From an uncultured Clostridia bacterium (GTDB lineage: Bacteria > Bacillota > Clostridia > Christensenellales > Aristaeellaceae): 53,882 nt of DNA. Positions 8,001-53,747 of the stretch are shown here, piece by piece; within the stretch, counting starts at the first letter, position 1, and every line of letters begins with the position of its first letter. The notes beneath the pieces are model-generated. The model did no database searches. It saw only the letters and a program-made list of their open reading frames with translations, and was not told the DNA's origin. The stretch spans positions 1 through 53,882 of the forward strand of contig CAMDVP010000001.1 in NCBI GenBank assembly GCA_945877525.1, in the 5' to 3' direction. The position numbers were made by a program, and so were the translations under genes.

Positions 8001-11000
8001 TGGTAATACGGGGTATTGAGCAGCTCGTACATGAAGTCCTGAATGTACTCCGGCGCGATCCACGTCGCGCCCAGCCGCACGTCAATGTCGGACGCCTCCA
8101 AATCCTTGGGCTGTGCGGCTTCCAGCGCCGTCACATTGGGCTGAAAGGCAGCGTCCGACTGCACAGCGGTTCTGGCCTCGCGCAGCTTTTGCCGCACATT
8201 GCCGGACAGGTATTCATCTGCCGTCACATACTGCGCCTCGGTGCCGGGGATTCGGAAGATGACGCCTGTCAGCTCCTGAACGATGTCCTCCTCGCTTTTC
8301 CCGGTCAGCTGGGCCATATAGCCGAGGTCAACCCTGGCGCGCTCCCCGATGGACACCGCCAGAGCATCAGCAGAGGTGTCCACATGATCGACGCTGCGCT
8401 GCTGCTTGATCGTCCGCTTTGTAAACATATCCGCCTTCCGCAGCAGCTTGTGATCATCATCGAGGATTTCGAGCGAGCAGAGCAGGTAGTAGGAGGAATC
8501 CGAGGAAAACGCAAGGCGGTTTGCACGGTCATTAATGAGGCCAAAGCGTGCGGAGAAGCTGTCATACAGAGTATTCAGCTCCTGCTGAAGCTGCTCAATT
8601 TCCCCGTCGCCGTGCTCATCGAGCTGCGCGTCGATCAGCTTGCGCACCTGATCCCGCAGGGCAATCATCCCCTTGACGCGCTCCTGCGCCGTCTGATTCA
8701 GGTGTGGCTTCACCATGCGGCTGTTCTCGCGGTAATAGACGGTGCCGTCGATCACCGTATACGAGAAGTTGCGCACGTCGGGATCAGCGGGAATGGATTC
8801 ATCTATCGCTTCATTGTCGCCCAGATCGGGCAGCGCCGCTTCCTGATAGGTGCCGTGGATATGGCCAATTGCCTCATGCAGCTGATCTGCGAGGCTCACG
8901 CCCTCTTTCGGGAGAACGGTGAAGCTCTCCCGGCCGTACTGCGTATTCTCCTTCGCCAGCGTGCCCAGAATCATCTCCGGGTGCTGAACAAAGTAGCTGT
9001 TCATGGTCAAGCCATCTGCGTCTTCACCCACATGCACCCAGTCCGGCTCAATCTCGATGGCTCGATCCCGCTTTTGCAGGAAGATGATGTCCGAAACGAC
9101 TTCTGTGCCCGCGTTGGCGCGAAAGGCGTTGTTGGGCAGCCTGATCGCGCCCAGCAGCTCCGCACGCTGCGCGATATATCTGCGCACCTCCGGGGACTGC
9201 TGATCCATCGTGTAGCGGGAGGTGACAAAGGCAATCACGCCGCCCGGGCGCACCTGGTCGATGGCCTTGGCAAAAAAGTAATTATGAATGGAAAAACCGA
9301 GCTTATTGTAAGCCCGGTCGTTGACCTGATAGTTGCCAAAGGGCACATTGCCGATGGCGAGGTCGAAGAAGTCGCGCCTGTCCGTCGTTTCAAAGCCCGC
9401 GACGGTGATGTTGGCCTTGGGATAAAGCTGCTGTGCGATGCGCCCTGTGATACTGTCCAGCTCTACGCCGTACAGGCGACTGGCCTGCATTCCTTCCGGC
9501 AGCATTCCGAAGAAATTTCCAACGCCCATCGACGGCTCCAGAATGTTGCCGCCGGTGAAGCCCATCTGCGCGACAGCATCGTACATCGCCCGAATGACGA
9601 CAGGGCTGGTGTAGTGTGCGTTGAGCGTCGAGGCGCGCGCCGCCTCGTATTCCTGCGGTGTGAGTATGGCGGCAAGTTGCCGGTATTCATCTGCCCACGC
9701 CGGCTTGTCGGGGTCAAAGGCATCTGCCAGACCGCCCCAGCCCACATAGCGCGAGAGCACCTCCTGCTCCTGCGGCGTTGCTGCACGTCCTTCAGCTTCA
9801 ATCTGCTTGAGCGTTCGGATGGCGGCAAGGTTGTTGCCATACTTGGCCTTCGCACCGCCCTCGCCGAGATGATCATCCGTGATGCGGAAGTTCTCTGCAG
9901 CAGGCTGAGTTGGCTGATGATGTGCAGGTTCTTCCACGCGAAGCCGCTCAATGACCACATCATAGGGCAAGCCGTTTTTCTCACCCGGATAGACGGCTTC
10001 CGTTTCTGTTGTAAATGTGTGTCCTTCTTTTACAGAGTCAGACGAAAGCAGACCCGTATTGCGCTCATCCAACATCAGCAACTGTTCAAAGCGCTCGATG
10101 CTCTCTGAGCGGAAGATGGGATAAGCCTGAGAAGGGTCCTGAAGCTGTATATTGAAATGCCCGATCTGGGTAATGACGAAGGGGCGGTCATCCAGATAGA
10201 CGGTATCGCCGACCTTGTACGGGTGCTCCTGCGCAGCGTATTCGGATGAACCCTCTCCTTCGTTTTGAGCAGGAGATTCTGTGCTATCCCGCTCAGCCTG
10301 AAGCTGCTCCGCCAGCTCCGTTACCTGCTGAATGAACGGGCTGTCTCTGAGTGCTTCCTCATCCACAACCTCGCCATTGACGATGCCCGCGTCAGCCAGA
10401 TGCTCACGCACGGCTTCGGTGTCGATGGATTCGTCATCATCCGGCATTTCTACGTTCGCTTCTACGCCATCCGAGAAATCAGATTCCGGAGCAGGCTCGT
10501 TCGTTTCGGTTTGTACTTCCTCGGCTTCCTGGAACACTCCGATGCTTTCCAGTTCCTTTGGCGTCATATACCGGTCACGCGCGATCATGACGTCAATCCG
10601 CTTTACCACCTGCGCCCAGCTGAGCTGAACAGGCGGGCAGCCTTCCTTTTCCAGTTTGATGCCCTTGCCGTCATGGCTTTCTCCGCTGCGGTCAGAGCCT
10701 GACACCGCATGGGAGCGCCCGCCGATGCCATACTCTTCTTTCAGAAAATCCGCCTTTTCCTTGGGCGTATGCGCGGGATATGCCGTAAAGAAGCGATAGA
10801 TTCTGCCCTTGCCGCCAGCCATGCTGCTCCCACTGGCAAGCTGCGCATCTATCTCATCCTCGGTGATGAAGGCTGCCGGCCTTGCCACCTCCGTCAGCAG
10901 GGATTCGTATTCCCTGCGGGGAAGGGCAAGCTCTCTGAGCGACCGAGCCAGTGCAGCCGGGTTGTGGAAACGGAATCGCAGGAGATTTCGGTTTTGCGCA

Positions 11001-43969: not shown

Positions 43970-44874
43970 AGTTCTTCCTCCTCGTCTTCTGCAGGCATAA
44001 CATAGTCTCGCCAGGTTTCTTTTTGCAGCCATTTGCTTATCCCCGGAATGAACCTTCCACCATCCTGCTGCCATGACTCAGAACACTTCGCAGCATTAAG
44101 GGCATCCATAATGGCTTGCGGTGTGGCTCCAAGAGAGATTGCCATTTGATACTGTCGAACTGCCTCGCTACGATCTGTGCGTCGGTCTTCAGGATAGGCG
44201 CACCACAACCCAACAAACCCATCCGGTTCACTTGAAAAGCATGTATTATTCTTATATTCTTGGTTAGGCCTAATTATTGGGCCACCACCGGCATGATTAT
44301 TAGGCCACTGTGGCCCGGTTTCTGGGCCATCGCCGGCCTGATTATTGGGCCACTGTGGCCTAATTTCCGAGCCACTCCCGGCCTGATTATTGGGCCACTG
44401 TGGCCTAATTTCCGAGCCATTCCCGGCCTGATTATTGGGCCACTGTGGCCTGGTTTCCGGGCCACAGGCGGTCTGATTATTGGGCCACTGTGATACGTGT
44501 GTTGTAACGGTAAGCGATTGGTTCCCTGACTCTTCTGAACTACCTGTTCTACGGCTGGTATAGCTGTCGAGCCAGCTCGTGACCCGAACCAGTGTTCCTG
44601 AGGATGTCTTTTTCATACAGATGCAACCAAGTTGCTCGAGTTCTGCGAATTTCTTTGCCAGTTTCTCGCGTGACCAGCGAAGTTCTGCAGCAGCATGACG
44701 AATAGACATTGGGAACTCGCCCGGATTGATTTTGTGTCCCTGCCAGAAATACGTATTCCAACTGGCTTTATACAGGCAGTAGTGATACAGCTTGAATAAG
44801 CCGTCATCGGGCCATATTGGACTACTTTGGAGGGACGGATACGACTTGACAAATCGCTCGTCCTTACTTGCCAT
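43954..44874 (-). CDS. Putative replication initiator/replisome organiser (winged-helix N-terminus, five 15-aa repeats, DnaD-like C-terminus)
   Basis: Its position directly upstream of the primase-helicase gene fits. The C-terminus reads WCAYPEDRR..SEA...Y......G...QAIMDAL......SWQQDGGRFIPGISKWLQKETWRDY. ATG at 44874 follows AAGGAGATTGTC. Confidence 0.55.
   Translation of the reverse strand: MASKDERFVKSYPSLQSSPIWPDDGLFKLYHYCLYKASWNTYFWQGHKINPGEFPMSIRHAAAELRWSREKLAKKFAELEQLGCICMKKTSSGTLVRVTSWLDSYTSRRTGSSEESGNQSLTVTTHVSQWPNNQTACGPETRPQWPNNQAGNGSEIRPQWPNNQAGSGSEIRPQWPNNQAGDGPETGPQWPNNHAGGGPIIRPNQEYKNNTCFSSEPDGFVGLWCAYPEDRRTDRSEAVRQYQMAISLGATPQAIMDALNAAKCSESWQQDGGRFIPGISKWLQKETWRDYVMPAEDEEEELWVSR
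44268..44492. repeat. About five tandem 45-bp repeats inside the initiator gene, each carrying the 13-bp palindrome GGCCACTGTGGCC; candidate iterons
   Basis: The palindrome occurs at 44303, 44348, 44393 and 44438, exactly 45 bp apart, with a truncated copy at 44483. Adjacent units differ by only 0-3 nt. Confidence 0.8.
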
Positions 44875-45514: not shown

Positions 45515-45994
45515 TCAGAAAAAAAGCTCTTTGTTCGCACGCAGCTGAGTAAGAAGCTTGAGCAGACGCCGGTTGATGCAGGAGTGTGACACATGCATCA
45601 GTCGCGCGATTTCTCGTTTTGAACGATGCTGCATGTAATGCATGGTCAACAGTGTGGCGCCAGATTCTGTGACCTGGTTGGCAAACTGCATGATTTCGTT
45701 GATGGTGTCCTTAAGCAAGAAGTCAGCTTCAATGTCTGTATCATCGACAAGGTTATATCGCGCTTCGGCTTCTTCAAAGTTTTCAATGATTCCCATACAT
45801 TTCCAGCGACATAGCTGACAATCACCACAGCAGAGCGAGTAGTTTGGCTGCGCACAACGATGTTCACGACGAGCTAAGTATCTGACATGGTTGTTTTCCT
45901 TGCGGATAGCTTTGATAACAGATTCGGGAACAGGTATTCTCTCTCGATTGATCGTAAGGTACATCGTGCTGACATGGTCAGCGGCCTGAGGCAT
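45515..45994 (-). CDS. Sigma-70 region-4-type HTH regulator with Cys-rich N-terminal part
   Basis: C-terminus ATLLTMHYMQHRSKREIARLMHVSHSCINRRLLKL and an N-terminal CCGDCQLCRWKC cluster. AAAGGAGGG lies 8 nt upstream of the ATG at 45994. Confidence 0.6.
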   Translation of the reverse strand: MPQAADHVSTMYLTINRERIPVPESVIKAIRKENNHVRYLARREHRCAQPNYSLCCGDCQLCRWKCMGIIENFEEAEARYNLVDDTDIEADFLLKDTINEIMQFANQVTESGATLLTMHYMQHRSKREIARLMHVSHSCINRRLLKLLTQLRANKELFF

Positions 45995-46383: not shown

Positions 46384-46413
46384 CAAAAAAAAGGAACCGC
46401 TTCACAGCGGTTC
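46384..46413 (-). terminator. Intrinsic terminator after the 621-aa gene
   Basis: Minus strand reads GAACCGCT-gtga-AGCGGTTC followed by CTTTTTTTT, about 10 nt after the stop at 46422. Confidence 0.8.
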
Positions 46414-46421
46414 GAAACATC

Positions 46422-48287
46422 TTACTTATCAAATAGTTGCTTGTGTGTCTCTGTAATTGCGTAAATGTCGTCCATAAACATGCAGTCTATGATGCATTGG
46501 TACCTATAGTATCTAACCATGATTGTGCGTGTAAAGCCAACAATATCAAGAAACAAAGCAGAAAGGGGCGGGGGCAGTCGCAGTCCAACAACCAGCCGTG
46601 TCACGTCTTGAATGGAGTACCTGTAATTATCATCCTTGCACATTCTGCTAATTGTGGCAGGGCTTAAGCCGGAGTTCAATGACAACTCATTTTGCGTTCC
46701 AACACGATCAGCAATCAATTTCTTAAGTGCTGTTGTAGGGCGGCGAGGGAACGTATCCAGGTATTCCATGTTTTTCTCGATGACGTCTTCCGTAGTCATA
46801 CCTGTAATTTCCATCGTATGGATCGTCAGGTATACTTCATTATAGTCGGCGTCAGAGTGCAGTTCTCCCACCTGATAGCCAGTGGTCTCTGAAACATGAT
46901 AGGATTTATGGAAGCGCAAGCAGCATTCGTCGATGTGAGCCAGCGCCCACGCGGTCAACATGGCACGGTTTCCACTATTTCGAATAAACGGTGGAAGGTT
47001 ACAGCACACATGACCATCCGCATAGATATATTGATGTGTGCTGATCAGATTTCGGAAATCAGCATCCGTTTCATATAGGGCGGTGAACTGACTCCGGCTG
47101 ATGACAAAAGTATCATTTGAGCAGAGATTATCTGGATTGAAGGCAAATGGTTCAATATACTTGCCATCGACGAAGTTGTATGCGCCTTTCGCGCCAACAG
47201 ACCCCATCGTAATAAGCCTGGTCTTGATGAGCGACTTGGATTTTTGCTTGTCAGACGCAATCTGATATATTACATTTGAGATCTTTTGCCCCAAATTGAC
47301 CTGCGTATTGGCAACTTCGGCCCAATACTTATTTACAAGGGGAGTAATCACGGGACGAGGAAACATTGCGGCAATGCCAACAAAACTGGCCTGCCGTTCA
47401 ACCCATCGCACATCCTTCTCAGCTGGTTTGGAATGCTTGTCAGCTTCCACATATTTCAGCAGCCGAAGATCTGCAGCATGGAGTTCCTGCAGTTCAAAAA
47501 ACATGGAATGCCACTCGTAGTGCCCACATTCATGATAGATTTCACGCTCCATATCTCCTTGATGAAGCCTGTTCTCATTGATTAGGATTGTCTTTTCTGG
47601 GACTGTCATATCTTGAAAGCCTTCATCATCTGTCGCTGAACCTATTGCCCCGGAAGCAACTACTCGAGCATGTCCCTCTTTGAAATACAAAATGGCAGAA
47701 GTGTGATGATTACGATAAAGGGAAACGCGCTTAATCTTCAGCCCCATAGCTTCTGCCAGTGCTGTTGCGCCGTTTTCCTGATACGTCATGGCGGCATGCT
47801 CACCTATATACCTACGCAGCAACTGTAACACCATGATTTCCATCTCATCATAGGTTAGAACTGGCACAAGGTATTTCGACAGCCGTGGAAATTTGCGCTC
47901 AGGAAGACAACAGGTACTGAGCTCCTTGATACCCGGATGCAGCGTGATGCCGCCATCAAGCGTGAATTCAGTAGAAAAGTTGATGTAGCGGACATAGTAT
48001 CTGGGAATACCGCTGTCTTGAGATAGTCCGATTTTGGTTCGCATTCGGATATCAGCGAGAAGATGAGTCCTGTCTTTCCACCACAGATCCGTGCGAACAA
48101 TCTTGCTATCGTTCCGATCAACAACCACTTTTCCATTGCCAACATCAATTTCCAGGTTTTCAACGATGCCAAGTTCAATCCCGGCACAGACTTCATCCAG
48201 CAGTTCATCCATATAGTGATTGCTGATGTAGTCCTGCATGTTCTGCAACACAGGAGCAACTGCTTTTTTCTTACCCTGTTCGCTCAT
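46422..48287 (-). CDS. Large ImmA/IrrE (M78)-type HExxH metallopeptidase-domain protein with C-terminal HTH
   Basis: ALAEAMGLKIKRV...ILINEN...EREIYHECGHYEWH...VERQASFVGIAAMFP matches the ImmA/IrrE pattern. The C-terminus TQNELSLNSGLSPATISRMCKD is HTH-like. The N-terminal part (about 150 aa) and the middle part (about 190 aa) are unassigned. Confidence 0.7.
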   Translation of the reverse strand: MSEQGKKKAVAPVLQNMQDYISNHYMDELLDEVCAGIELGIVENLEIDVGNGKVVVDRNDSKIVRTDLWWKDRTHLLADIRMRTKIGLSQDSGIPRYYVRYINFSTEFTLDGGITLHPGIKELSTCCLPERKFPRLSKYLVPVLTYDEMEIMVLQLLRRYIGEHAAMTYQENGATALAEAMGLKIKRVSLYRNHHTSAILYFKEGHARVVASGAIGSATDDEGFQDMTVPEKTILINENRLHQGDMEREIYHECGHYEWHSMFFELQELHAADLRLLKYVEADKHSKPAEKDVRWVERQASFVGIAAMFPRPVITPLVNKYWAEVANTQVNLGQKISNVIYQIASDKQKSKSLIKTRLITMGSVGAKGAYNFVDGKYIEPFAFNPDNLCSNDTFVISRSQFTALYETDADFRNLISTHQYIYADGHVCCNLPPFIRNSGNRAMLTAWALAHIDECCLRFHKSYHVSETTGYQVGELHSDADYNEVYLTIHTMEITGMTTEDVIEKNMEYLDTFPRRPTTALKKLIADRVGTQNELSLNSGLSPATISRMCKDDNYRYSIQDVTRLVVGLRLPPPLSALFLDIVGFTRTIMVRYYRYQCIIDCMFMDDIYAITETHKQLFDK

Positions 48288-48302: not shown

Positions 48303-49544
48303 TTATGAGTACATCATACTGGGCATGTGAACCAAATGCCGGTCATCTTTAGGCATATGCAGATCACCCAGCAACGCAGCTGGAATAATTGCCTGATTGC
48401 CAAAGCGCCCACGTATTGCATCAATGCAATCGTCCAGTTTCTGCCTACGCATTCGCTTTTCCATGTCACCAAACATATCAATCTGAATGCTCTGCGTGCT
48501 TGATACCAGGTTGATTCCCGTAACAGTAATCGCGCGAACTGGCTTTAGCCAACGATACCGCTGATTGAACAGCAATCTCGCAGCCTGAGCAATCTCAAGC
48601 GGACTCTGTGACGGGTATGAAAGCTGCGCCTGCGCGATTTCGTACCCCAATTCATTATCACGTACACAAACTCTTACCCCTCTTGCAGATAGCCCATAGC
48701 AGCGCAGACGATGCCCAATGTCCTGGGAAAGATCCAATATGACTTTCCAGACTTCATCCTCTGAGTGTAAGTCTGCATTACAGGTGATCCCGTGCCCGAC
48801 GCTTTTAATTGGTTCTTCATAGCCGTCCGGCTTGATTCTGTAGCGATCCTCTCCATTGGCAGTGATCCAGAGATCTATACCGTTTTTGCCAAACCAGCTC
48901 CGAAGATACTGTGGATCGGTATGGGCAAGGTCGCCAATTGTGAGTACGTTGCGATCCATGAGCTTCTTTGCTGTTCGGGGGCCAACAAAAAGCAGATCCG
49001 ATACGGGCAGTTGCCAAACACGCTCCCTCCAGTGTTCAGTATCCAGCACGGTAATGGCATCCGGCTTCTTCATGTCGCTCCCGAGTTTCGCTAAGATTTT
49101 GCTAAAAGAGACACCAATCGACACAGTAATGCCCAATTCATCTTTAACTGTTTGTCGAATGTCTTCGGCAATTTGGGTACCATTACCATGGATTTTGTCG
49201 CTTCCTGTAACATCGAGCCAGCATTCGTCCATGCCATAAGGTTCTACGAGATCTGTGTATCGACGATAGATATTTCGAAGCAGCATGGAAAAGCGATTGT
49301 ACTGCTCATAGTGTGGCGGAACACAGATCAGCCCCGGACAGGCTTGCCGTGCTTCCCAATTTGCTTGCCCCGTCTTCACGCCCATCCGCTTTGCCTTCTC
49401 GCTTTTCGCCAGGACGATTCCATGCCGATCATCCTCGCTTCCGCATACAGCGACGGCCTTGCCTTGCAGTTCCCGGTTGAGGAGCATTTCAACAGCGGCA
49501 TAAAAACAGTTCGCATCACTATGCAAGATAACGCGGTCGTTCAA
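48303..49544 (-). CDS. dinB: Y-family DNA polymerase (DinB/Pol IV-like)
   Basis: HSDANCFYAAVE, GIVLAKSEKAKRMGVKTG and MDECWLDVTG motifs. TTG start follows AAGGAGGTG. Confidence 0.85.
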   Translation of the reverse strand: MNDRVILHSDANCFYAAVEMLLNRELQGKAVAVCGSEDDRHGIVLAKSEKAKRMGVKTGQANWEARQACPGLICVPPHYEQYNRFSMLLRNIYRRYTDLVEPYGMDECWLDVTGSDKIHGNGTQIAEDIRQTVKDELGITVSIGVSFSKILAKLGSDMKKPDAITVLDTEHWRERVWQLPVSDLLFVGPRTAKKLMDRNVLTIGDLAHTDPQYLRSWFGKNGIDLWITANGEDRYRIKPDGYEEPIKSVGHGITCNADLHSEDEVWKVILDLSQDIGHRLRCYGLSARGVRVCVRDNELGYEIAQAQLSYPSQSPLEIAQAARLLFNQRYRWLKPVRAITVTGINLVSSTQSIQIDMFGDMEKRMRRQKLDDCIDAIRGRFGNQAIIPAALLGDLHMPKDDRHLVHMPSMMYS

Positions 49545-49592
49545 ATCGTCAGCACCTCCTTGATGATGCTAAACATCTCATCACAAAGACTA

Positions 49593-49621
49593 TTGACATT
49601 TAACCACACATTCGCTATAAT
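49593..49621 (+). promoter_or_regulatory. Perfect-consensus sigma-A promoter directed rightward toward the XRE gene
   Basis: TTGACA (49593-49598), a 17-nt spacer and TATAAT (49616-49621). Confidence 0.75.
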
Positions 49622-49649
49622 GCGTATGTGGTTAAACATCGCATTTAGG

Positions 49650-49678
49650 ATTATAGCGCGGTTAAACATCATTGTCAA
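49650..49678 (-). promoter_or_regulatory. Perfect-consensus sigma-A promoter directed leftward toward dinB
   Basis: Minus strand has TTGACA (49678->49673), a 17-nt spacer and TATAAT (49655->49650). Confidence 0.75.
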
Positions 49679-49716
49679 CATGGTATTGTGATGTTTAACA
49701 TTACAGGAGGGTGCCT

Positions 49717-50142
49717 ATGACATTCGGAGAGAAGATCAAAACGCTGAGAAACGAAAAAGGCTGGTCTCAGGATGAACTGGCGAAGAAGTTGGGCGTAAAT
49801 AGGCGCGCAATCAGTTGTTACGAAAACGGGACTTCATATCCGCGCACCATGGAACGCTATCAACAGCTGGCAGAGATCTTTGGTGTCGAAGTGAATTACT
49901 TGCGCACCGAGAATGAGGTGTTCATGGAGGAAGTCGGCGCACAGTATGGGCGACGCGGCATACTGCAGGCGAAAGACATCCTCGAGCAGACAGCGCAGCT
50001 TTTTGCCGGTGGCAGTCTTTCGGACGAGGATCAACTCGCGTTTATGACAGAAATGCAGCAGCTGTATCTGGACTCGAAGCAGCGTGCCAAGAAGTACACA
50101 CCGAAGAAGTATTTGAAGGTTCAGCTACCCGATGAAGAATAA
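49717..50142 (+). CDS. XRE/Cro-C1-type repressor (ImmR-like)
   Basis: MTFGEKIKTLRNEKGWSQDELAKKLGVNRRAISCYENG. ATG at 49717 lies 6 nt after AGGAGG; the track start at 49711 is a GTG inside the spacer. Confidence 0.85.
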   Translation: MTFGEKIKTLRNEKGWSQDELAKKLGVNRRAISCYENGTSYPRTMERYQQLAEIFGVEVNYLRTENEVFMEEVGAQYGRRGILQAKDILEQTAQLFAGGSLSDEDQLAFMTEMQQLYLDSKQRAKKYTPKKYLKVQLPDEE

Positions 50143-50169: not shown

Positions 50170-50697
50170 GTGAATTTGGATATATATGAAGATGCAGAAC
50201 GCTTGGCAAAACGTTACGGAACTCGCGATCCATTTGAGCTGCTGGACGTTATGAATGTGGTTGTGAAGTTTACGGATAAGTTTCCGAAGGATGGCTTAAA
50301 GGGATTTTGCACCTTTATGAATAAAACGAAGTATGTCGTCATCAACGATAGACTATCCTCAATTGAGGCGCGTGTCGTTGCCGGTCATGAAGCTGGACAT
50401 ATCATCCGGCATGCCACTGAACTGAAAGTCGGTGCATTCCAGGACAATGACATTTATATGGCCACCGGGAAAAAGGAGCGCGAGGCAAATGTCTTTGCGG
50501 CTGATTTTCTGATTCGTGACGCTGATGTCCTCGAACTGATGCAGTCCTGTGACTCCAATTTTTTCAATGTTTCCAAAGCGTTGCGTATTCCCGCCCCGTT
50601 CTTTGCGTTCAAACTGTACAGTATGGTGGAGAGGGGCCATGCTATGCGGATGCCCGTTGATCTGGACAGCACATTTCTTGCGCGAAAGAGGTGTTGA
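50170..50697 (+). CDS. ImmA/IrrE-family metallopeptidase (anti-repressor protease)
   Basis: HEAGHIIRH (HExxH) and EREANVFAADFLI. GTG start follows GGGAG. The gene lies immediately downstream of the XRE gene. Confidence 0.8.
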   Translation: MNLDIYEDAERLAKRYGTRDPFELLDVMNVVVKFTDKFPKDGLKGFCTFMNKTKYVVINDRLSSIEARVVAGHEAGHIIRHATELKVGAFQDNDIYMATGKKEREANVFAADFLIRDADVLELMQSCDSNFFNVSKALRIPAPFFAFKLYSMVERGHAMRMPVDLDSTFLARKRC

Positions 50698-50700
50698 CGG

Positions 50701-50988
50701 ATGAAAGATGAGAGAGCGCGAAAGGTATATGTTCAGGTGAAAGTGGATTTTTCACCTGAAGGCCAGATGCGCCCACGCGAACTGATATGGGAAGATGGAG
50801 CGAGGTATGAGATTGATCGCATTCTTGATGTAAAGCAAGCTGCTGAGCTAAAGTGCGGTGGGCAAGGAGACCGATACACGATCATGGTGCGAGGGAAGGA
50901 AAGGCATTTGTTTTTTGAGCGCAATGGATCTGTCACTGGGAGAAACATTGGGCGTTGGTTTGTCCCCTGCTCCCGTTCGGCGAGCTAG
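50701..50988 (+). CDS. Hypothetical protein, third gene of the XRE/ImmA operon
   Basis: 95-aa ORF whose ATG lies 3 nt after the ImmA stop, followed by a terminator. Confidence 0.5.
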   Translation: MKDERARKVYVQVKVDFSPEGQMRPRELIWEDGARYEIDRILDVKQAAELKCGGQGDRYTIMVRGKERHLFFERNGSVTGRNIGRWFVPCSRSAS

Positions 50989-51025: not shown

Positions 51026-51053
51026 CTCCGGGATAGTTTTCCCGGAGTTTTTT
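51026..51053 (+). terminator. Intrinsic terminator
   Basis: CTCCGGG-atagtttt-CCCGGAG followed by TTTTTT. Confidence 0.8.
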
Positions 51054-51182: not shown

Positions 51183-51413
51183 ATGCAAATGAACATCATG
51201 CAGGAACAGAAAACTACCCATATGACGCCTGCTGAATCCACCAAACCGGAACGGCGCTGCTATACCGTAGATGAAGTGATGGAATTTCTGGGCGTTGGAC
51301 GCAAAGCAGTTTATTCGCTGATTCACAGGAAGGCGTTCCCTGCCATTCGCATCAACAATCTGGGGTACCGCATTCCTAAGGAGTCTTTCAATTCCTGGCT
51401 GCTTCAGAAGTGA
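51183..51413 (+). CDS. xis: Excisionase-type (MerR-like HTH_17) small DNA-binding protein
   Basis: CYTVDEVMEFLGVGRKAVYSLIHRKAFPAIRINNLGYRIPKESFNSWL. SD is AAGGAGGAG. Confidence 0.7.
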   Translation: MQMNIMQEQKTTHMTPAESTKPERRCYTVDEVMEFLGVGRKAVYSLIHRKAFPAIRINNLGYRIPKESFNSWLLQK

Positions 51414-51506
51414 AGCAGCCAAGCTCGAAAGCTCATCGACAGCCTCAAACTTTTGCGAGCGCTGTGCTATCATCTTTATTAGCAGTCTGAAAGAAAGGGG
51501 GGAATC

Positions 51507-52322
51507 TTGGCTATGGACAGGGAAGCAACGACCATGTCTGTCCGTGAAATGAGGGAGCTGTTGGGGATCAAAAAAACTGACAGCTACTGGCTGCTCAAGA
51601 AAAACTGCTTTGAAGTCGTAAAGATTGCCGGGAAGATGCGGATTGTGAAGAAGAGTTTTGAAAACTGGTATGCTGGACAGACGCATTATCGCAAGGTCAG
51701 CGGAGAAGAACCCGGAAAGCAGCTTGAGACAGAGTTTTACTCCGCACAGAAAATCGGTGAAATGCTGGGCATTAAGACCTGCAGCGTTTATGACCTCATC
51801 CAGTCTGCAGGACTGAGGACAGTCGTAATCGACAACAGGCTGAGGGTTCCGCGAGAAGTGTTCGATACATGGTATGCAGGCCAGAATCATTACCGTGTTG
51901 CGCAGGATCGAGAACGTGACCGATTGCTTGAGGAAAGCTCCATGACCGTTCCGGAACTTGGCAGACTGCTGGGCTTGGATCGCAGACAGGCTTGGAAGCT
52001 ACACACCAAGGTGAAATCCGCGTTCGTTACCATCCGTGTTGCAGGAAAACCAAGGGTAACGAAACAGAGCTTTGAGTCCTGGTATCAGAATCAGGCAGAG
52101 TATACCAAGGTTACTGTCCAAGCATCTGATGGGTTTTCTTGCGCCGTCAGTAATAAGCCTTTCTGCCCACTGAATGAGGCGTCTCAGCTATCGGGTATTC
52201 CTGAGCGGGATCTTTACAGAATGATACAATCCCATGATCTCCAAGGAAAGAAGATTGGGAAGAACTGGTATATCCGTCAAGAAGAAATGCAGGACATAAT
52301 GAACCAGAGAAAAGGAACTTGA
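51507..52322 (+). CDS. Protein made of four tandem excisionase-type HTH modules
   Basis: The pattern (S/T)xxExxxLLGxxxxxxYxLxxx....(V/I)xxxGxxR(V/I)xxxSFExWYxxQxxY occurs four times. The start is either TTG at 51507 or ATG at 51513, after AAAGGGGGG. Confidence 0.7.
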   Translation: MAMDREATTMSVREMRELLGIKKTDSYWLLKKNCFEVVKIAGKMRIVKKSFENWYAGQTHYRKVSGEEPGKQLETEFYSAQKIGEMLGIKTCSVYDLIQSAGLRTVVIDNRLRVPREVFDTWYAGQNHYRVAQDRERDRLLEESSMTVPELGRLLGLDRRQAWKLHTKVKSAFVTIRVAGKPRVTKQSFESWYQNQAEYTKVTVQASDGFSCAVSNKPFCPLNEASQLSGIPERDLYRMIQSHDLQGKKIGKNWYIRQEEMQDIMNQRKGT

Positions 52323-52340
52323 TTGAGAGGAGGACGTTCA

Positions 52341-53747
52341 ATGGCTTCAATTACGACGAGGAATGATCGCTTCTGCGTCATCTATTCATATGTTGATGAC
52401 AAGGGGAACCGGAGGCAGAAATGGGAAACCTTTCAGACACTACAGGAAGCGAAAGCGCGTAAAGCAGAAATCGAGTACAGTCAGCAGTTGGGAACCTTTA
52501 CGATTCCGAACTGCACTACTGTATCGGAACTTCTCTCTGAATATGTCTCTCTGTATGGAAAAACCAAATGGTCTATATCTGCATACACCGCGAACACAGC
52601 GCTTATTGCGCACTATATTGAGCCCTATCTGGGCAACCAGAAGATCAGAGAGATCACAGCACGGTCACTTGAAAAGTACTACCAAACGCTCCTCAAAACG
52701 CCGGCTGTACATAAAATGACGGATAGGAAGAGCAAAAAGACCAATACAACGGTAACGCCTTCAACGGTGCGCAGGGTTCATAGCCTGCTGAGAAGTGCCT
52801 TCAATCAAGCTGAGAAATGGGACTTGGTTGATAAGAATCCCGCTCGATATGCCACCGTCCCCAAGGCACAACCAAAGGAGCGTGAAATCTGGGATGCGTC
52901 CACACTCTTTCAGGCCATCGAATGCTGTGAGGACGAGCGGCTGAAGCTGTGCTTGAATCTGGCGTTCGCCTGTTCGCTCCGAATTGGTGAACTACTTGGC
53001 CTGACTTGGGACTGCGTTGATATTTCCGAAGAGAGTATTCTGAAAAACGAAGCGTCCATCTACATCAATAAGGAGTTGCAGCGTGTCAGTAAGAAGGCCA
53101 TGAAAACGTTGGAATCGAAGGATATCATCTACGCATTTCCTGAACAGGGGCAAGGAAACAAAACGCAGTTGGTTCTGAAGAAGCCGAAAACTCTTTCCAG
53201 TGTCCGTAAGGTATTCCTTCCAACGTCGGTTGCCAAAATGCTTGTTGCATGGAAGATGGAGCAGGATGCAATTATTGAGGCCATCGGAAGCGAATATGCG
53301 GATTACAAGCTGGTTATTGCAACCGCTAATGGCTTGCCCACTGAAGCATCCCGCATCAGAAAAGCGATGAAAGACCTTATCGCCGATAATGACCTTCCTC
53401 CGGTAGTGTTTCACAGTCTGCGTCACTCAAGCATCACCTATAAGCTCAAGCTGAATGGTGGCGACATCAAGGCTGTGCAAGGTGATTCCGGGCATTCTCA
53501 GGCACAGATGGTTACTGACCAGTATTCGCACATTCTCGACGAAAACCGGCGGCAAAATGCGCAGCTTGTCGAAAGGGCGTTTTATCAGGGGAAAGGTGCC
53601 GAAGTAGCCAGCATTGATCAGAAGGAGAGGTCTTCTGCAGCTGAGCAGGCAGCTGCGTCCGGTATCGATGCGGAGCTGTTGATGAAGATACTCAGCAACC
53701 CTGAGATGGTAAAGGTATTGCAGATGCTCTCGAAAACTGTGGGGTAA
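52341..53747 (+). CDS. int: Tyrosine recombinase/integrase with Tn916-Int-like arm-binding N-terminus
   Basis: SLRIGELLGLTW (Arg), HSLRHS (HxxR) and GHSQAQMVTDQYSHI (catalytic Tyr region). ATG at 52341 follows GGAGGA. Confidence 0.9.
   Translation: MASITTRNDRFCVIYSYVDDKGNRRQKWETFQTLQEAKARKAEIEYSQQLGTFTIPNCTTVSELLSEYVSLYGKTKWSISAYTANTALIAHYIEPYLGNQKIREITARSLEKYYQTLLKTPAVHKMTDRKSKKTNTTVTPSTVRRVHSLLRSAFNQAEKWDLVDKNPARYATVPKAQPKEREIWDASTLFQAIECCEDERLKLCLNLAFACSLRIGELLGLTWDCVDISEESILKNEASIYINKELQRVSKKAMKTLESKDIIYAFPEQGQGNKTQLVLKKPKTLSSVRKVFLPTSVAKMLVAWKMEQDAIIEAIGSEYADYKLVIATANGLPTEASRIRKAMKDLIADNDLPPVVFHSLRHSSITYKLKLNGGDIKAVQGDSGHSQAQMVTDQYSHILDENRRQNAQLVERAFYQGKGAEVASIDQKERSSAAEQAAASGIDAELLMKILSNPEMVKVLQMLSKTVG

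Follow-up and report, generated by a model that had tools for sequence, protein, structure and literature searches.

Facing consensus promoters and a candidate operator array as the likely on/off switch of conjugative elements and phages in gut Clostridia

In gut Clostridia (Lachnospiraceae, Oscillospiraceae), little is known of how conjugative elements and prophages are silenced and induced. The window analysed here, a stretch of 53,882 nucleotides (53.9 kb) from an uncultured Clostridia bacterium, carries the relaxase, VirD4, VirB4, Xis and Int genes of a real conjugative element. In a gap of 172 bp flanked by the genes for a repressor and for an error-prone DNA polymerase, it also holds two perfect promoters and five candidate repressor sites. 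Is this gap where the element is kept silent or induced? Most likely yes: the face-to-face layout described below would be the on/off switch of gut Clostridia conjugative elements and phages.

Promoters and candidate operators in the 172-bp gap

The two promoters match the sigma-A consensus at every position.

49593-49621, plus strand: P-right, TTGACA (49593-49598), 17-nt spacer, TATAAT (49616-49621), 12/12
49650-49678, minus strand: P-left, TTGACA-17-TATAAT, read as TGTCAA (49673-49678) and ATTATA (49650-49655), 12/12

No other 12/12 match, and no 11/12 match, was found across the 53.9-kb window, where P-right and P-left also form the only face-to-face pair. When the sequence was re-read, all coordinates and strands given for them in a first-pass annotation of this DNA proved correct. 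P-right is the predicted promoter of an operon made of the XRE repressor gene, an ImmA-like protease gene and p95, and P-left that of an operon made of the Y-family polymerase gene and p621; each hexamer pair points at a gene with its own ribosome-binding site. The gap between the two -10 hexamers is 28 nt. From the usual distance between -10 and start, transcription is predicted to begin at ~49628 for P-right and ~49643 for P-left, so that the 5′ ends of the two transcripts are predicted to overlap by ~15-16 nt. An alternative promoter for XRE, TTGTCA-18-TAACAT (49672-49701, 9/12), was rejected because its start would land in the ribosome-binding site.

The 10-mer copies listed in the first-pass annotation, and their positions, were likewise all found in place. 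Perfect copies of GTTAAACATC occupy 49631-49640 and 49661-49670, with a third, inverted, at 49690-49699; 49568-49577 matches it at 9 of 10 positions and 49595-49604, again inverted, at 8 of 10. Three perfect copies were thus observed within 70 bp, versus ~0.1 expected in the window, and every copy with at most one mismatch in the window sits inside 132 bp of the switch interval. After comparison with the related loci L085, L007 and L002, the model of an oriented 10-mer was dropped, and the repeat is better read as part of a putative 13-bp pseudo-palindrome, GATGTT-N-AACATC. The orientation of the “convergent pairs of sites”, which had been described as bracketing each -35, consequently has little physical meaning. 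The five candidate operators, scored against the 13-bp dyad, are listed below.

49565-49577: OA, GATGCTAAACATC, 11/12, upstream of the P-right -35
49595-49607: OB, GACATTTAACCAC, 8/12, the weakest site, overlapping the P-right -35 and spacer
49628-49640: OC, the central site, GTGGTTAAACATC, 10/12
49658-49670: OD, GCGGTTAAACATC, 10/12, within the P-left spacer
49690-49702: OE, GATGTTTAACATT, 11/12, upstream of the P-left -35 and directly before the XRE ribosome-binding site

Their centres (49571, 49601, 49634, 49664 and 49696) are 30, 33, 30 and 32 bp apart, meaning that the proposed spacing of ~30 bp holds approximately, not strictly. The layout of the sites is nearly mirror-symmetric. OC is centred 1.5 bp off the midpoint between the two -10 hexamers, and spans ~+1 to +13 of P-right and +4 to +16 of P-left. 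Six 13-mer matches with at most two mismatches were counted in the window, versus 2.3 expected; this is a modest statistic when taken alone, and the argument for the 13-bp dyad is therefore based on clustering and comparison.

Conservation of the layout among related loci

A near-consensus face-to-face pair was found in 70 of 77 loci; counted as distinct loci, 61 of 68 have it upstream of their XRE homologue (54-67% identical). Controls gave 6 such pairs in 3850 shuffles and 2 in 2882 random windows (~0.1%). The P-right equivalent stands at the same relative position in the relatives and scores 9-12/12, that of P-left scores 12/12 in most loci, and the -10 to -10 gap is constrained to 27-29 or 33-34 nt. 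The convergent geometry claimed for the window is borne out and kept across a large family. As judged from this conservation, the comparative data show that the face-to-face layout is functional.

Altogether, 536 protein clusters were found in the repressor family. Homologues of XRE occur in a widespread gut phage lineage and in cultured strains, among them Blautia luti, Dorea hominis, Coprococcus comes MSK.16.63, Anaerobutyricum hallii DSM 3353 and Holdemanella biformis DSM 3989. Gene order is kept, with the Y-family polymerase on one side of the switch and XRE, ImmA and p95 on the other. ImmA adjoins XRE in nearly all loci, and in most of them the polymerase gene, divergent from XRE, is the first leftward gene. 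In L009 and L127 there is no polymerase gene, and a p621 homologue lies directly at the switch.

The candidate operators have equivalents as well. In the examined set of 10 representative type I loci, a 13-bp dyad equivalent to OC has its centre at -1 to -2 relative to the midpoint. Full dyads equivalent to OA lie at -64 to -70 (L085, L007, L002, L005, L009, L010), sites equivalent to OD at +28 to +29 (L085, L002, L024, L056) and dyads equivalent to OE at +57 to +61 (L085, L007, L002, L005), whereas the equivalent of the weakest site, OB, is a half-site at the same place in L085. In 31-36% of loci, versus 1-5% of shuffles, the central region has words of at least 8 nt in common with A, D or E. 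Substitutions among the 98%-identical relatives L081-L084 fall outside the hexamers and the OC, OD and OE cores.

In L085, whose XRE is 72% identical, the same five positions are occupied by another sequence, GAAGAT-N-ATCTTC. The XRE proteins of the window and L085 are 54% identical in their N-terminal part and 87% in their C-terminal part, and their operators differ; L085 and L007, with 78% N-terminal and 62% C-terminal identity, have the same operator. Since the positions of the sites are kept while their sequence changes in step with the DNA-binding domain of XRE, this argues that XRE binds the candidate sites. Such putative heteroimmune relatives share the layout and differ in operator and, as predicted, in repressor specificity. 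Sequence and comparison thereby show both promoters, the sites, how well they are conserved, and that site sequence goes with the DNA-binding domain.

Proposed working of the switch and alternative explanations

The genes and terminators around the gap are as follows.

46394-46413, minus strand: strong intrinsic terminator directly after the p621 stop codon, GAACCGCTGTGAAGCGGTTC then CTTTTTTTT
46422-48287, minus strand: p621, second leftward gene (phrog_4031, weak C-terminal HTH_26 match, HECGH motif)
48303-49544, minus strand: Y-family (DinB/Pol IV-like) DNA polymerase gene, first gene from P-left
49717-50142, plus strand: XRE-family repressor gene, 141 aa (N-terminal HTH_3, E 3e-13, and a conserved helical C-terminal domain)
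50170-50697, plus strand: ImmA/IrrE-like metalloprotease gene (Peptidase_M78, E 6.7e-13, HEAGH motif), predicted anti-repressor
50701-50988, plus strand: p95, conserved small gene, last in the rightward operon
51026-51047, plus strand: intrinsic terminator ending the rightward operon (8-bp stem with 6 GC pairs, then a T run), upstream of xis (51183)

In the scheme that follows, XRE binding, start sites, interference, proteolysis and cascade are all inferred from sequence. XRE would be a repressor of the short phage type, combining an HTH with a helical domain for oligomerisation, and would most likely bind as a dimer to the 13-bp pseudo-palindromes. OA, OC and OE, ~63 bp apart, would be its main sites, and OB and OD, inside the two promoters, auxiliary ones. 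P-left would be the early promoter and P-right the repressor's own. Lying exactly between the -10 hexamers and over both starts, OC would silence P-left together with OD and OE. P-right would be negatively autoregulated, yet leaky, as it would be contacted from OC and the weak OB only. Judging solely by site quality (10/12 for OD versus 8/12 for OB), P-left would be more strongly repressed than P-right.

RNA polymerase has a footprint of ~-55 to +20. With starts overlapping by ~15 nt, two polymerases would be unable to hold both promoters simultaneously. Upon inactivation of the repressor by the ImmA-like protease, the consensus P-left would fire and suppress P-right through occlusion or collision, leaving the element committed. 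By analogy, this commitment scheme is the logic of P2/186 switches.

How far would P-left reach? The first-pass annotation had it ultimately driving regulator, replication and transfer genes, a claim that is not supported here, as the terminator (46413 to 46394) follows the second leftward gene. P-left would directly transcribe just the Y-family polymerase gene and p621, up to that point. Because the terminators after p621 and p95 stand between the switch and the genes for transfer, Xis and Int, activation of transfer and excision genes would require read-through or a cascade, acting via p621 or a sigma-like 159-aa protein. p621 may be a next-tier regulator; its family search returned phrog_4031 only, a family without assigned function. 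No family match was found for p95, and no informative family for the proteins of 145 aa and 319 aa.

On balance, the XRE-ImmA cassette is probably the immunity/induction switch of a mobile element. The proposal that it is an ICE master switch was right in part: XRE and ImmA do lie beside xis and int on a conjugative element, but the cassette is not ICE-specific, as it is also found at the head of prophage-like elements and of a gut phage of the Heliusvirales. Evtepia phage NatCom_42594 has the same layout, and almost its entire lytic programme (genes for Y-family polymerase, replication, packaging, head, tail and lysis) follows downstream of it on the P-left strand; XRE is the sole annotated repressor within positions 1-55462 of 63373 bp.

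A wider proposal is possible, with the balance tipping somewhat against it. In gut Clostridia, conjugative elements and Heliusvirales-type phages would share one portable cassette that switches their life cycles as an occlusion toggle. Polymerase binding at its two consensus promoters would be mutually exclusive because the starts overlap by just ~15-20 nt; one repressor dimer on the central operator would gate both promoters, and immunity types would diversify by joint swap of DNA-binding domain and operator.

Alternatively, the cassette could be a self-contained damage-inducible mutagenesis module, resembling the streptococcal HdiR-UmuC cassette, in which the switch controls the polymerase operon only and not a life cycle. 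The polymerase is indeed the first leftward gene at most loci, and in the window a strong terminator follows the second. At L081-L084, moreover, the cassette survives beside chromosomal-type or metabolic genes, with no transfer genes, meaning that it can persist without controlling a life cycle. These four loci nevertheless resemble decayed remnants, since ImmA is uncalled in three of them. A recombinase or integrase is found downstream in L081-L084 and in L088-L089, and everywhere the cassette keeps the position of a lysogeny module, beside an integrase or recombinase. L009 and L127, which have p621 at the switch in place of the polymerase, also speak against a mutagenesis module, as does the Evtepia phage, with its sole annotated repressor and its replication, structural and lysis genes following on the P-left strand. 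We consider this explanation unlikely, and an immunity/induction switch the better one.

Control could also be exerted on RNA, with the antisense 5′ overlap and inverted-repeat 5′ hairpins setting mRNA stability or pairing, as in IS10 RNA-IN/RNA-OUT or pCF10 Anti-Q. The repeats would then matter as RNA structure, not as protein sites. One further feature is relevant here.

49595-49640, minus strand: 46-bp imperfect palindrome formed by OB and OC, centred on the P-right -10

In the leftward RNA, this palindrome is predicted to fold into a 5′-terminal stem of ~19 pairs with one small internal loop. The leftward leader folds at -37.7 kcal/mol over 114 nt (z -3.7), and at -23.3 kcal/mol over its first 60 nt (z -6.3). 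Together with the ~15-nt overlap of the predicted transcripts, and with stable leftward leaders in some relatives (L085, L030, L015, L045), this strong stem is what speaks for RNA-level control. Among 64 distinct loci, however, z is below -2 in just 38% of leftward and 27% of rightward leaders, and the rightward leader of the window is unstable (z +1.2 and -0.4 in two folds). An Rfam scan of 49300-49900 at E <= 1 returned nothing, and the sequence of the sites tracks the DNA-binding domain of XRE. That OA lies upstream of P-right is a weak point against RNA-level control, since transcription from P-left still covers it. A hairpin conserved in the 5′ leader was rejected as core mechanism: strong in the window, it is not family-wide, with only 38% of relatives reaching z < -2. 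RNA-level control is thus improbable, and the repeats are preferably taken as protein sites.

Would the protein then be one other than XRE, namely p621, a host factor, or a Xis-like directionality factor in the manner of 186 Apl or P2 Cox? Such a protein is slightly less probable still. There is a precedent in 186 Apl, which binds repeats between pR and pL (PMC7498355), and the window encodes p621 and two HTH_17 proteins. The HTH_17 Xis-like genes lie on the side opposite the leftward operon. Operators are retained in elements without p621 or HTH_17 genes, and in the mosaic comparisons operator type goes with the N-terminal domain of XRE. As for a host factor, a LexA-type box is the central site in some viral loci, but no LexA (Cheo) box, GAAC-N4-GTTC, was found at the switch of the window, whose sole match, at 44586, equals chance expectation, so that a direct action of LexA on the polymerase gene is unsupported. 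Finally, that just one hexamer pair is a real promoter, the other being a by-product of the strong dyad symmetry of the region, is hardly credible: consensus matches alone are no proof of function, but both pairs score 9-12/12 across diverged loci, with a fixed 17-nt spacer and a constrained gap, and each faces a gene with its own ribosome-binding site.

An immunity/induction switch under XRE control would be concrete and mappable from sequence alone, with its predicted promoters, operators, repressor and anti-repressor. The family offers natural heteroimmune operator/repressor sets suited to specificity studies and orthogonal genetic parts, and the very tight promoter geometry would be useful for studies of RNA polymerase mutual exclusion. 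An error-prone polymerase as first induced gene would, if confirmed, link element induction to mutagenesis.

Comparison with known switches

No paper describing this cassette was found in our literature searches. In ICEBs1 (Bacillus subtilis), the PimmR and Pxis promoters are back to back. A difference in arrangement from ICEBs1 had been claimed and is upheld: PimmR and Pxis are counter-transcribed from a shared intergenic region, whereas here the promoters are face to face with overlapping predicted 5′ ends. The array is not more elaborate than that of ICEBs1, as had also been claimed, since ICEBs1 has six ImmR sites (PMC8960796). The two elements are alike in that an HTH, XRE-type repressor gene is followed by a co-directional HExxH M78/COG2856 protease gene, on the integrase side of an integrative conjugative element. 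In ICEBs1 the protease inactivates the repressor (PMC8960796, PMC6540685), cleaving ImmR at F95-M96 (PMC8960796). In the XRE family F69, just after the DNA-binding domain, is invariant and is followed by M, L or I. The likeness of XRE to ImmR is confined to the DNA-binding domain (7t8i matches XRE residues 1-63 only, E 1.6e-5), and no full-length homology was found. Furthermore, xis is first induced in ICEBs1, whereas here the Y-family polymerase comes first and xis is on the repressor side, past the terminator.

A profile search of the PDB with XRE returned HTH_3 proteins of the 434, P22, SinR, ImmR and AimC types. Its closest full-length solved relative is the AimC repressor of phage phi106 (9sf2, ~28% identity). 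Foldseek, used only to name 9sf2, gave weak whole-chain matches with the XRE model (best E 1.4e-3, TM ~0.4), the low TM reflecting the uncertain relative position of the two domains. AimC, from the arbitrium phages, shares with XRE its short length, its HTH and its helical oligomerisation domain. According to a preprint (bioRxiv 10.1101/2025.11.23.689978), AimC is dimeric, represses a divergent early promoter and does not cleave itself, being inactivated by a separate anti-repressor. Instead of an M78 protease, this anti-repressor is the small protein AimX, which AimR and LexA control, and the sections of the preprint consulted describe no face-to-face promoter geometry for AimC-AimL.

Closely apposed promoters and a multi-site repressor are also found in other Gram-positive conjugation switches, pLS20 Pc/Pr and pCF10 prgQ/prgX. 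The pLS20 promoters are divergent and overlapping, with DNA looping (PMC4207663), not face to face. pCF10 has convergent PQ/PX promoters and an antisense RNA (PMC6540685), and its long overlap acts through this dedicated RNA; the ~15-nt predicted overlap, the lack of an Rfam match and the unconserved leader structure set the present locus apart from that type. Rco and PrgX are unrelated to XRE, and induction goes through peptide signalling. In Ecl18kI, the promoters Pm and Pr face each other, the front ends of bound polymerases interfere, and one DNA-binding protein tips the balance (PMC2760811); this is nevertheless a restriction-modification system, with a methyltransferase as regulator, a single operator and no role in the life cycle of a mobile element.

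P2, W-phi and 186 have convergent promoters (Pe/Pc, pR/pL) between divergent lysogenic and early operons, as found here. Their heteroimmune relatives retain the layout and alter the operator sequence, and their half-sites are two or three helical turns apart. Their hosts are Gram-negative and their repressor families unrelated: no 186 CI chain appeared at E <= 0.01 in the PDB profile search, and homology of XRE to P2 C or 186 CI was not found. The operators of P2 are direct repeats where those here are dyads, no second repressor of the Cox/Apl type heads the early operon here, and induction is predicted to go via a separate metalloprotease. Transcripts overlap by ~35 nt in P2 and 82 nt in W-phi (PMC1904263), compared to a shorter predicted overlap of ~15-21 nt here. 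Transcriptional interference contributes to switches of this type, according to Dodd 1990 and Callen 2004 as cited in PMC2760811 and PMC3675496. By its layout, the switch described here is one that would work like the P2/186 face-to-face type, with parts of the ImmR/ImmA type.

The proposed switch region and its candidate operators

In the window, 172 bp separate the leftward Y-family polymerase gene from the rightward XRE repressor gene, and two promoters face each other in this gap: P-right, directed towards XRE, and P-left, directed towards the polymerase gene.

Features of the switch and its flanks (window coordinates)
45515-45994, minus strand: 159-aa sigma-70-like/antiterminator-Q-like gene, after the p621 terminator
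46413->46394, minus strand: strong intrinsic terminator after p621, GAACCGCTGTGAAGCGGTTC then a T run
46422-48287, minus strand: p621, second leftward gene, 15 bp after the polymerase gene; phrog_4031, HECGH motif, weak C-terminal HTH_26 match
48303-49544, minus strand: Y-family polymerase gene, TTG start, GGAGGTG ribosome-binding site
49593-49621, plus strand: P-right, TTGACA-17-TATAAT
49678-49650, minus strand: P-left, TTGACA-17-TATAAT
49717, plus strand: ATG of the XRE gene (HTH_3 domain match), AGGAGG just before
Right of the switch, after XRE, plus strand: ImmA/IrrE-like M78 protease gene, HEAGH motif
50701-50988, plus strand: p95, conserved small gene (95 aa)
51026-51047, plus strand: strong intrinsic terminator closing the rightward operon
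51183-53747, repressor's strand: xis, a 271-aa HTH_17 protein and int (tyrosine integrase); the two HTH_17 proteins are Xis-like

A whole-window scan returned these two promoters as the only 12/12 matches, none at 11/12, and just this one face-to-face pair. Together with a rereading of the sequence, it upheld the two consensus promoters of the first-pass annotation, coordinates and convergent layout included. With the usual 7 nt between -10 hexamer and start, transcription is predicted to begin near 49628 (P-right) and 49643 (P-left), so that the 5′ ends of the two RNAs would share ~15-16 nt.

The same annotation had described a 10-mer, GTTAAACATC, exact at 49631 and 49661, exact and inverted at 49690, with a 9/10 copy at 49568 and an inverted 8/10 copy at 49595. 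All five positions and match grades are correct, and beyond the gap no copy with one mismatch or fewer occurs in the 53.9 kb. The repeat is real, but the 13-bp dyads and the relatives indicate that it is the better-conserved right-hand part of a 13-mer. Scoring against the 6-1-6 dyad GATGTT-N-AACATC (12 scored positions) gave five candidate XRE operators, spaced 30, 33, 30 and 32 bp centre to centre.

Candidate operators in the gap, with matches to the dyad
49565-49577: OA, GATGCTAAACATC, 11/12
49595-49607: OB, GACATTTAACCAC, 8/12
49628-49640: OC, GTGGTTAAACATC, 10/12
49658-49670: OD, GCGGTTAAACATC, 10/12
49690-49702: OE, GATGTTTAACATT, 11/12

Relative to the predicted starts, OC spans ~+1 to +13 on the P-right side and +4 to +16 on the P-left side. 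The P-left spacer contains OD, and OE is found ~53 bp before the predicted P-left start. Three sites touch P-right: OC, the weak OB, and OA, located ~57 bp before the predicted P-right start.

Conservation of the layout and variation of the candidate operators

The XRE family comprises 536 clusters at E <= 1e-5. We compared 80 genomic loci of Clostridia, Lachnospiraceae and Oscillospiraceae among them (XRE homologues 54-99% identical), most of which keep the order leftward polymerase gene, gap, rightward XRE and ImmA. A near-consensus face-to-face pair upstream of the XRE gene (total score at least 20/24, 20-40 nt between -10 hexamers) was found in 70 of the 77 loci with enough flank, or 61 of 68 distinct sequences; the same search picked out 6 of 3850 shuffles and 2 of 2882 windows drawn at random from these loci. 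Most loci have a 12/12 P-left, and P-right often scores 10-11/12. The -10 to -10 gap falls into two classes, type I of 27-29 nt (28 nt in the window) and type II of 33-34 nt, the latter mainly in Lachnospiraceae. The relatives L081-L084, 98% identical, vary by substitutions and small indels that leave all four hexamers and the OC, OD and OE cores untouched.

Type II loci, e.g. L030, L045, L065, L016 and L020, carry a dyad TGTGATTCACA adjoining the P-left -10, ~12 bp right of the -10/-10 midpoint. It is kept across lineages with differing immunity operators, and may bind a common host or element factor rather than the lineage-specific repressor.

Ten representative type I loci have a 13-bp dyad (6-1-6) centred 1-2 bp off the -10/-10 midpoint, and other dyads or half-sites near -68, -31, +28 and +60. 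Dyads are lineage-specific (GTAGTT-G-AACTAC; GAACTT-G-AAATTC; GAAAAT-T-ATTTTC; GGAAA-N4-TTTCC; GGCAA-N4-TTGCC), each paired with its own recognition helix. Locus L085, whose XRE is 72% identical to that of the window, uses the same five positions with a different motif.

Sites of locus L085
Upstream of the P-right -35: TGAAGATTATCTTCA
P-right spacer: ATCTTCA
Between the -10 hexamers: TGAAGATGAACTTCA
P-left spacer: GATAATCTTCA
Upstream of the P-left -35: GAAGATATTCTTC

The window and L085 repressors are 54% identical over residues 1-63 and 87% over the remainder, and their operators differ. Those of L085 and locus L007 are 78% identical in the N-terminal part and 62% in the remainder; both have GAAG...CTTC operators, with recognition helices STRTIASYEAG and SSRTIASYEAG. 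From this natural domain mosaic, the strongest argument available, we infer that the operator motif follows the XRE DNA-binding domain.

Reach of the proposed switch and its occurrence elsewhere

The window is a Clostridia-type conjugative element whose minus strand encodes DNA-processing proteins (relaxase, primase-like protein, giant SNF2/methylase protein, topoisomerase III, DnaB-like helicase), transfer and surface proteins (CD1107-like protein, NlpC/P60 hydrolase, VirB4-like and VirD4-like ATPases, sortase-dependent pilins) and ParAB. That P-left ultimately drives the transfer genes, as first proposed, was not borne out, since terminators bound both short operons. With those after p621 and p95, the switch directly drives just two leftward and three rightward genes; to reach transfer and excision, its control would have to pass through a cascade or read-through. 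As candidate second-tier regulators we note p621 and the 159-aa sigma-70-like protein. The xis, HTH_17 and int genes, past the rightward terminator and on the same strand as the repressor gene, are oddly sited for excision genes if meant for induction. No match to p95 was found in Pfam, NCBIfam or PHROGs; homologues (36-72% identical) follow ImmA in many type I and several viral loci and were not detected in most type II loci. The induction module could include p95 as a third component.

The main rival reading is a self-contained mutagenesis cassette, which the terminator after p621 favours, as do metagenome contigs L081-L084 (gene 10001-10426). These carry a near-identical cassette (XRE 98% identical) with xis and int, adjoining ABC-transporter and nitrogenase-like genes and without transfer genes. 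In three of the four contigs no ImmA gene is called. The two promoters and most operators survive, and the contigs look like decayed remnants. However, some loci have no polymerase gene, L009 and L127 having a p621 homologue directly at the switch, and the cassette also holds its position in real phages. The deposited Evtepia phage NatCom_42594 (Ca. Heliusvirales; XRE 48% identical) has this layout ahead of its Y-family polymerase gene, and genes for replication, packaging, head, tail and lysis come next on that strand. In L085-L090 the cassette heads prophage-like replication modules (PolA, PDDEXK nuclease, D5 or PriCT primase) adjoining a serine recombinase or other cargo. Judged from these comparisons, the switch cassette is portable across settings. 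Control at the RNA level, suggested by the strong stem at the 5′ end of the leftward leader (49640->49595), is disfavoured by the lack of conservation of this stem across the family and of any Rfam family match.

Downstream of XRE, ImmA and p95 in L085-L087 (~11290-16117 in L085) lie genes for an S24 (UmuD/LexA-like) peptidase, an SRAP protein and a metallo-beta-lactamase-fold protein (weak Apyc1 match), a cluster of cargo related to DNA damage and possibly to anti-defence.

An independent IMG/VR scan for perfect pairs (12/12 + 12/12, 27-34 nt between -10 hexamers) yielded 42 viral contigs, with well under one expected by chance if the collection holds ~1e11 bases. About half of the pairs flank XRE, ImmA or polymerase relatives; next to the others no XRE homologue was detectable, which argues that the geometry is used beyond this one repressor family.

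In viral contigs L093, L095, L097, L113, L120, L122, L126, L129 and L131, perfect pairs with a 27-nt -10 gap (L093: 5544-5628) surround a central palindrome, GGTTAAAGAACTTAACC; no XRE, ImmA or polymerase homologue lies next to them, and the geometry seems to serve another repressor family. Viral loci L100 (4766-4855), L106, L107, L116 and L130 (XRE homologue ~33% identical) have AGAACGTTCGTTCG between the -10 hexamers, a match to GAAC-N4-GTTC, the LexA (Cheo) box of Firmicutes, so that the central operator position may be taken by host LexA in these loci. The window switch contains no LexA box.

Proposed mechanism and known systems

The XRE model (pLDDT 79) predicts an HTH domain of five helices with two long helices after it, and among solved structures the phi106 AimC repressor (9sf2) is the closest full-length relative. 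AimC is a dimer that represses the divergent early promoter ~100-fold; by itself it is unresponsive to DNA damage, and a separate anti-repressor inactivates it (bioRxiv 10.1101/2025.11.23.689978).

The placement of OC, OD and OE on P-left, versus OC, weak OB and OA on P-right, leads us to propose tight, cooperative repression of P-left and, for P-right, negative autoregulation that is leaky. Polymerases would exclude each other from the two promoters, because in this geometry their footprints (textbook -55 to +20) would overlap. The ImmA-like protease presumably inactivates the repressor, as in ICEBs1 (PMC6540685, PMC8960796). F69 is invariant, has M, L or I as the next residue, stands just past the DNA-binding domain and recalls the ImmR cleavage site F95-M96 (PMC8960796), which is only a lead. 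Once the repressor is inactivated, P-left would fire and hold P-right down. The switch is readily testable.

In the searchable literature we found no description of a face-to-face switch combined with an XRE + M78 module, of a predicted overlap as short as this, with one operator placed exactly between the starts, of a Y-family polymerase as first induced gene, or of one cassette common to conjugative elements and Heliusvirales phages of gut Clostridia. Face-to-face switches whose operator sets are heteroimmune (P2, W-phi, 186) are already established, as are XRE + M78 protease modules (ICEBs1, DdrO/IrrE). The proposed firing of P-left at the expense of P-right has the logic shown for 186 and P2 (PMC1904263; Dodd 1990 and Callen 2004, cited in PMC2760811), and front-end polymerase interference in Ecl18kI (PMC2760811) follows that same logic.
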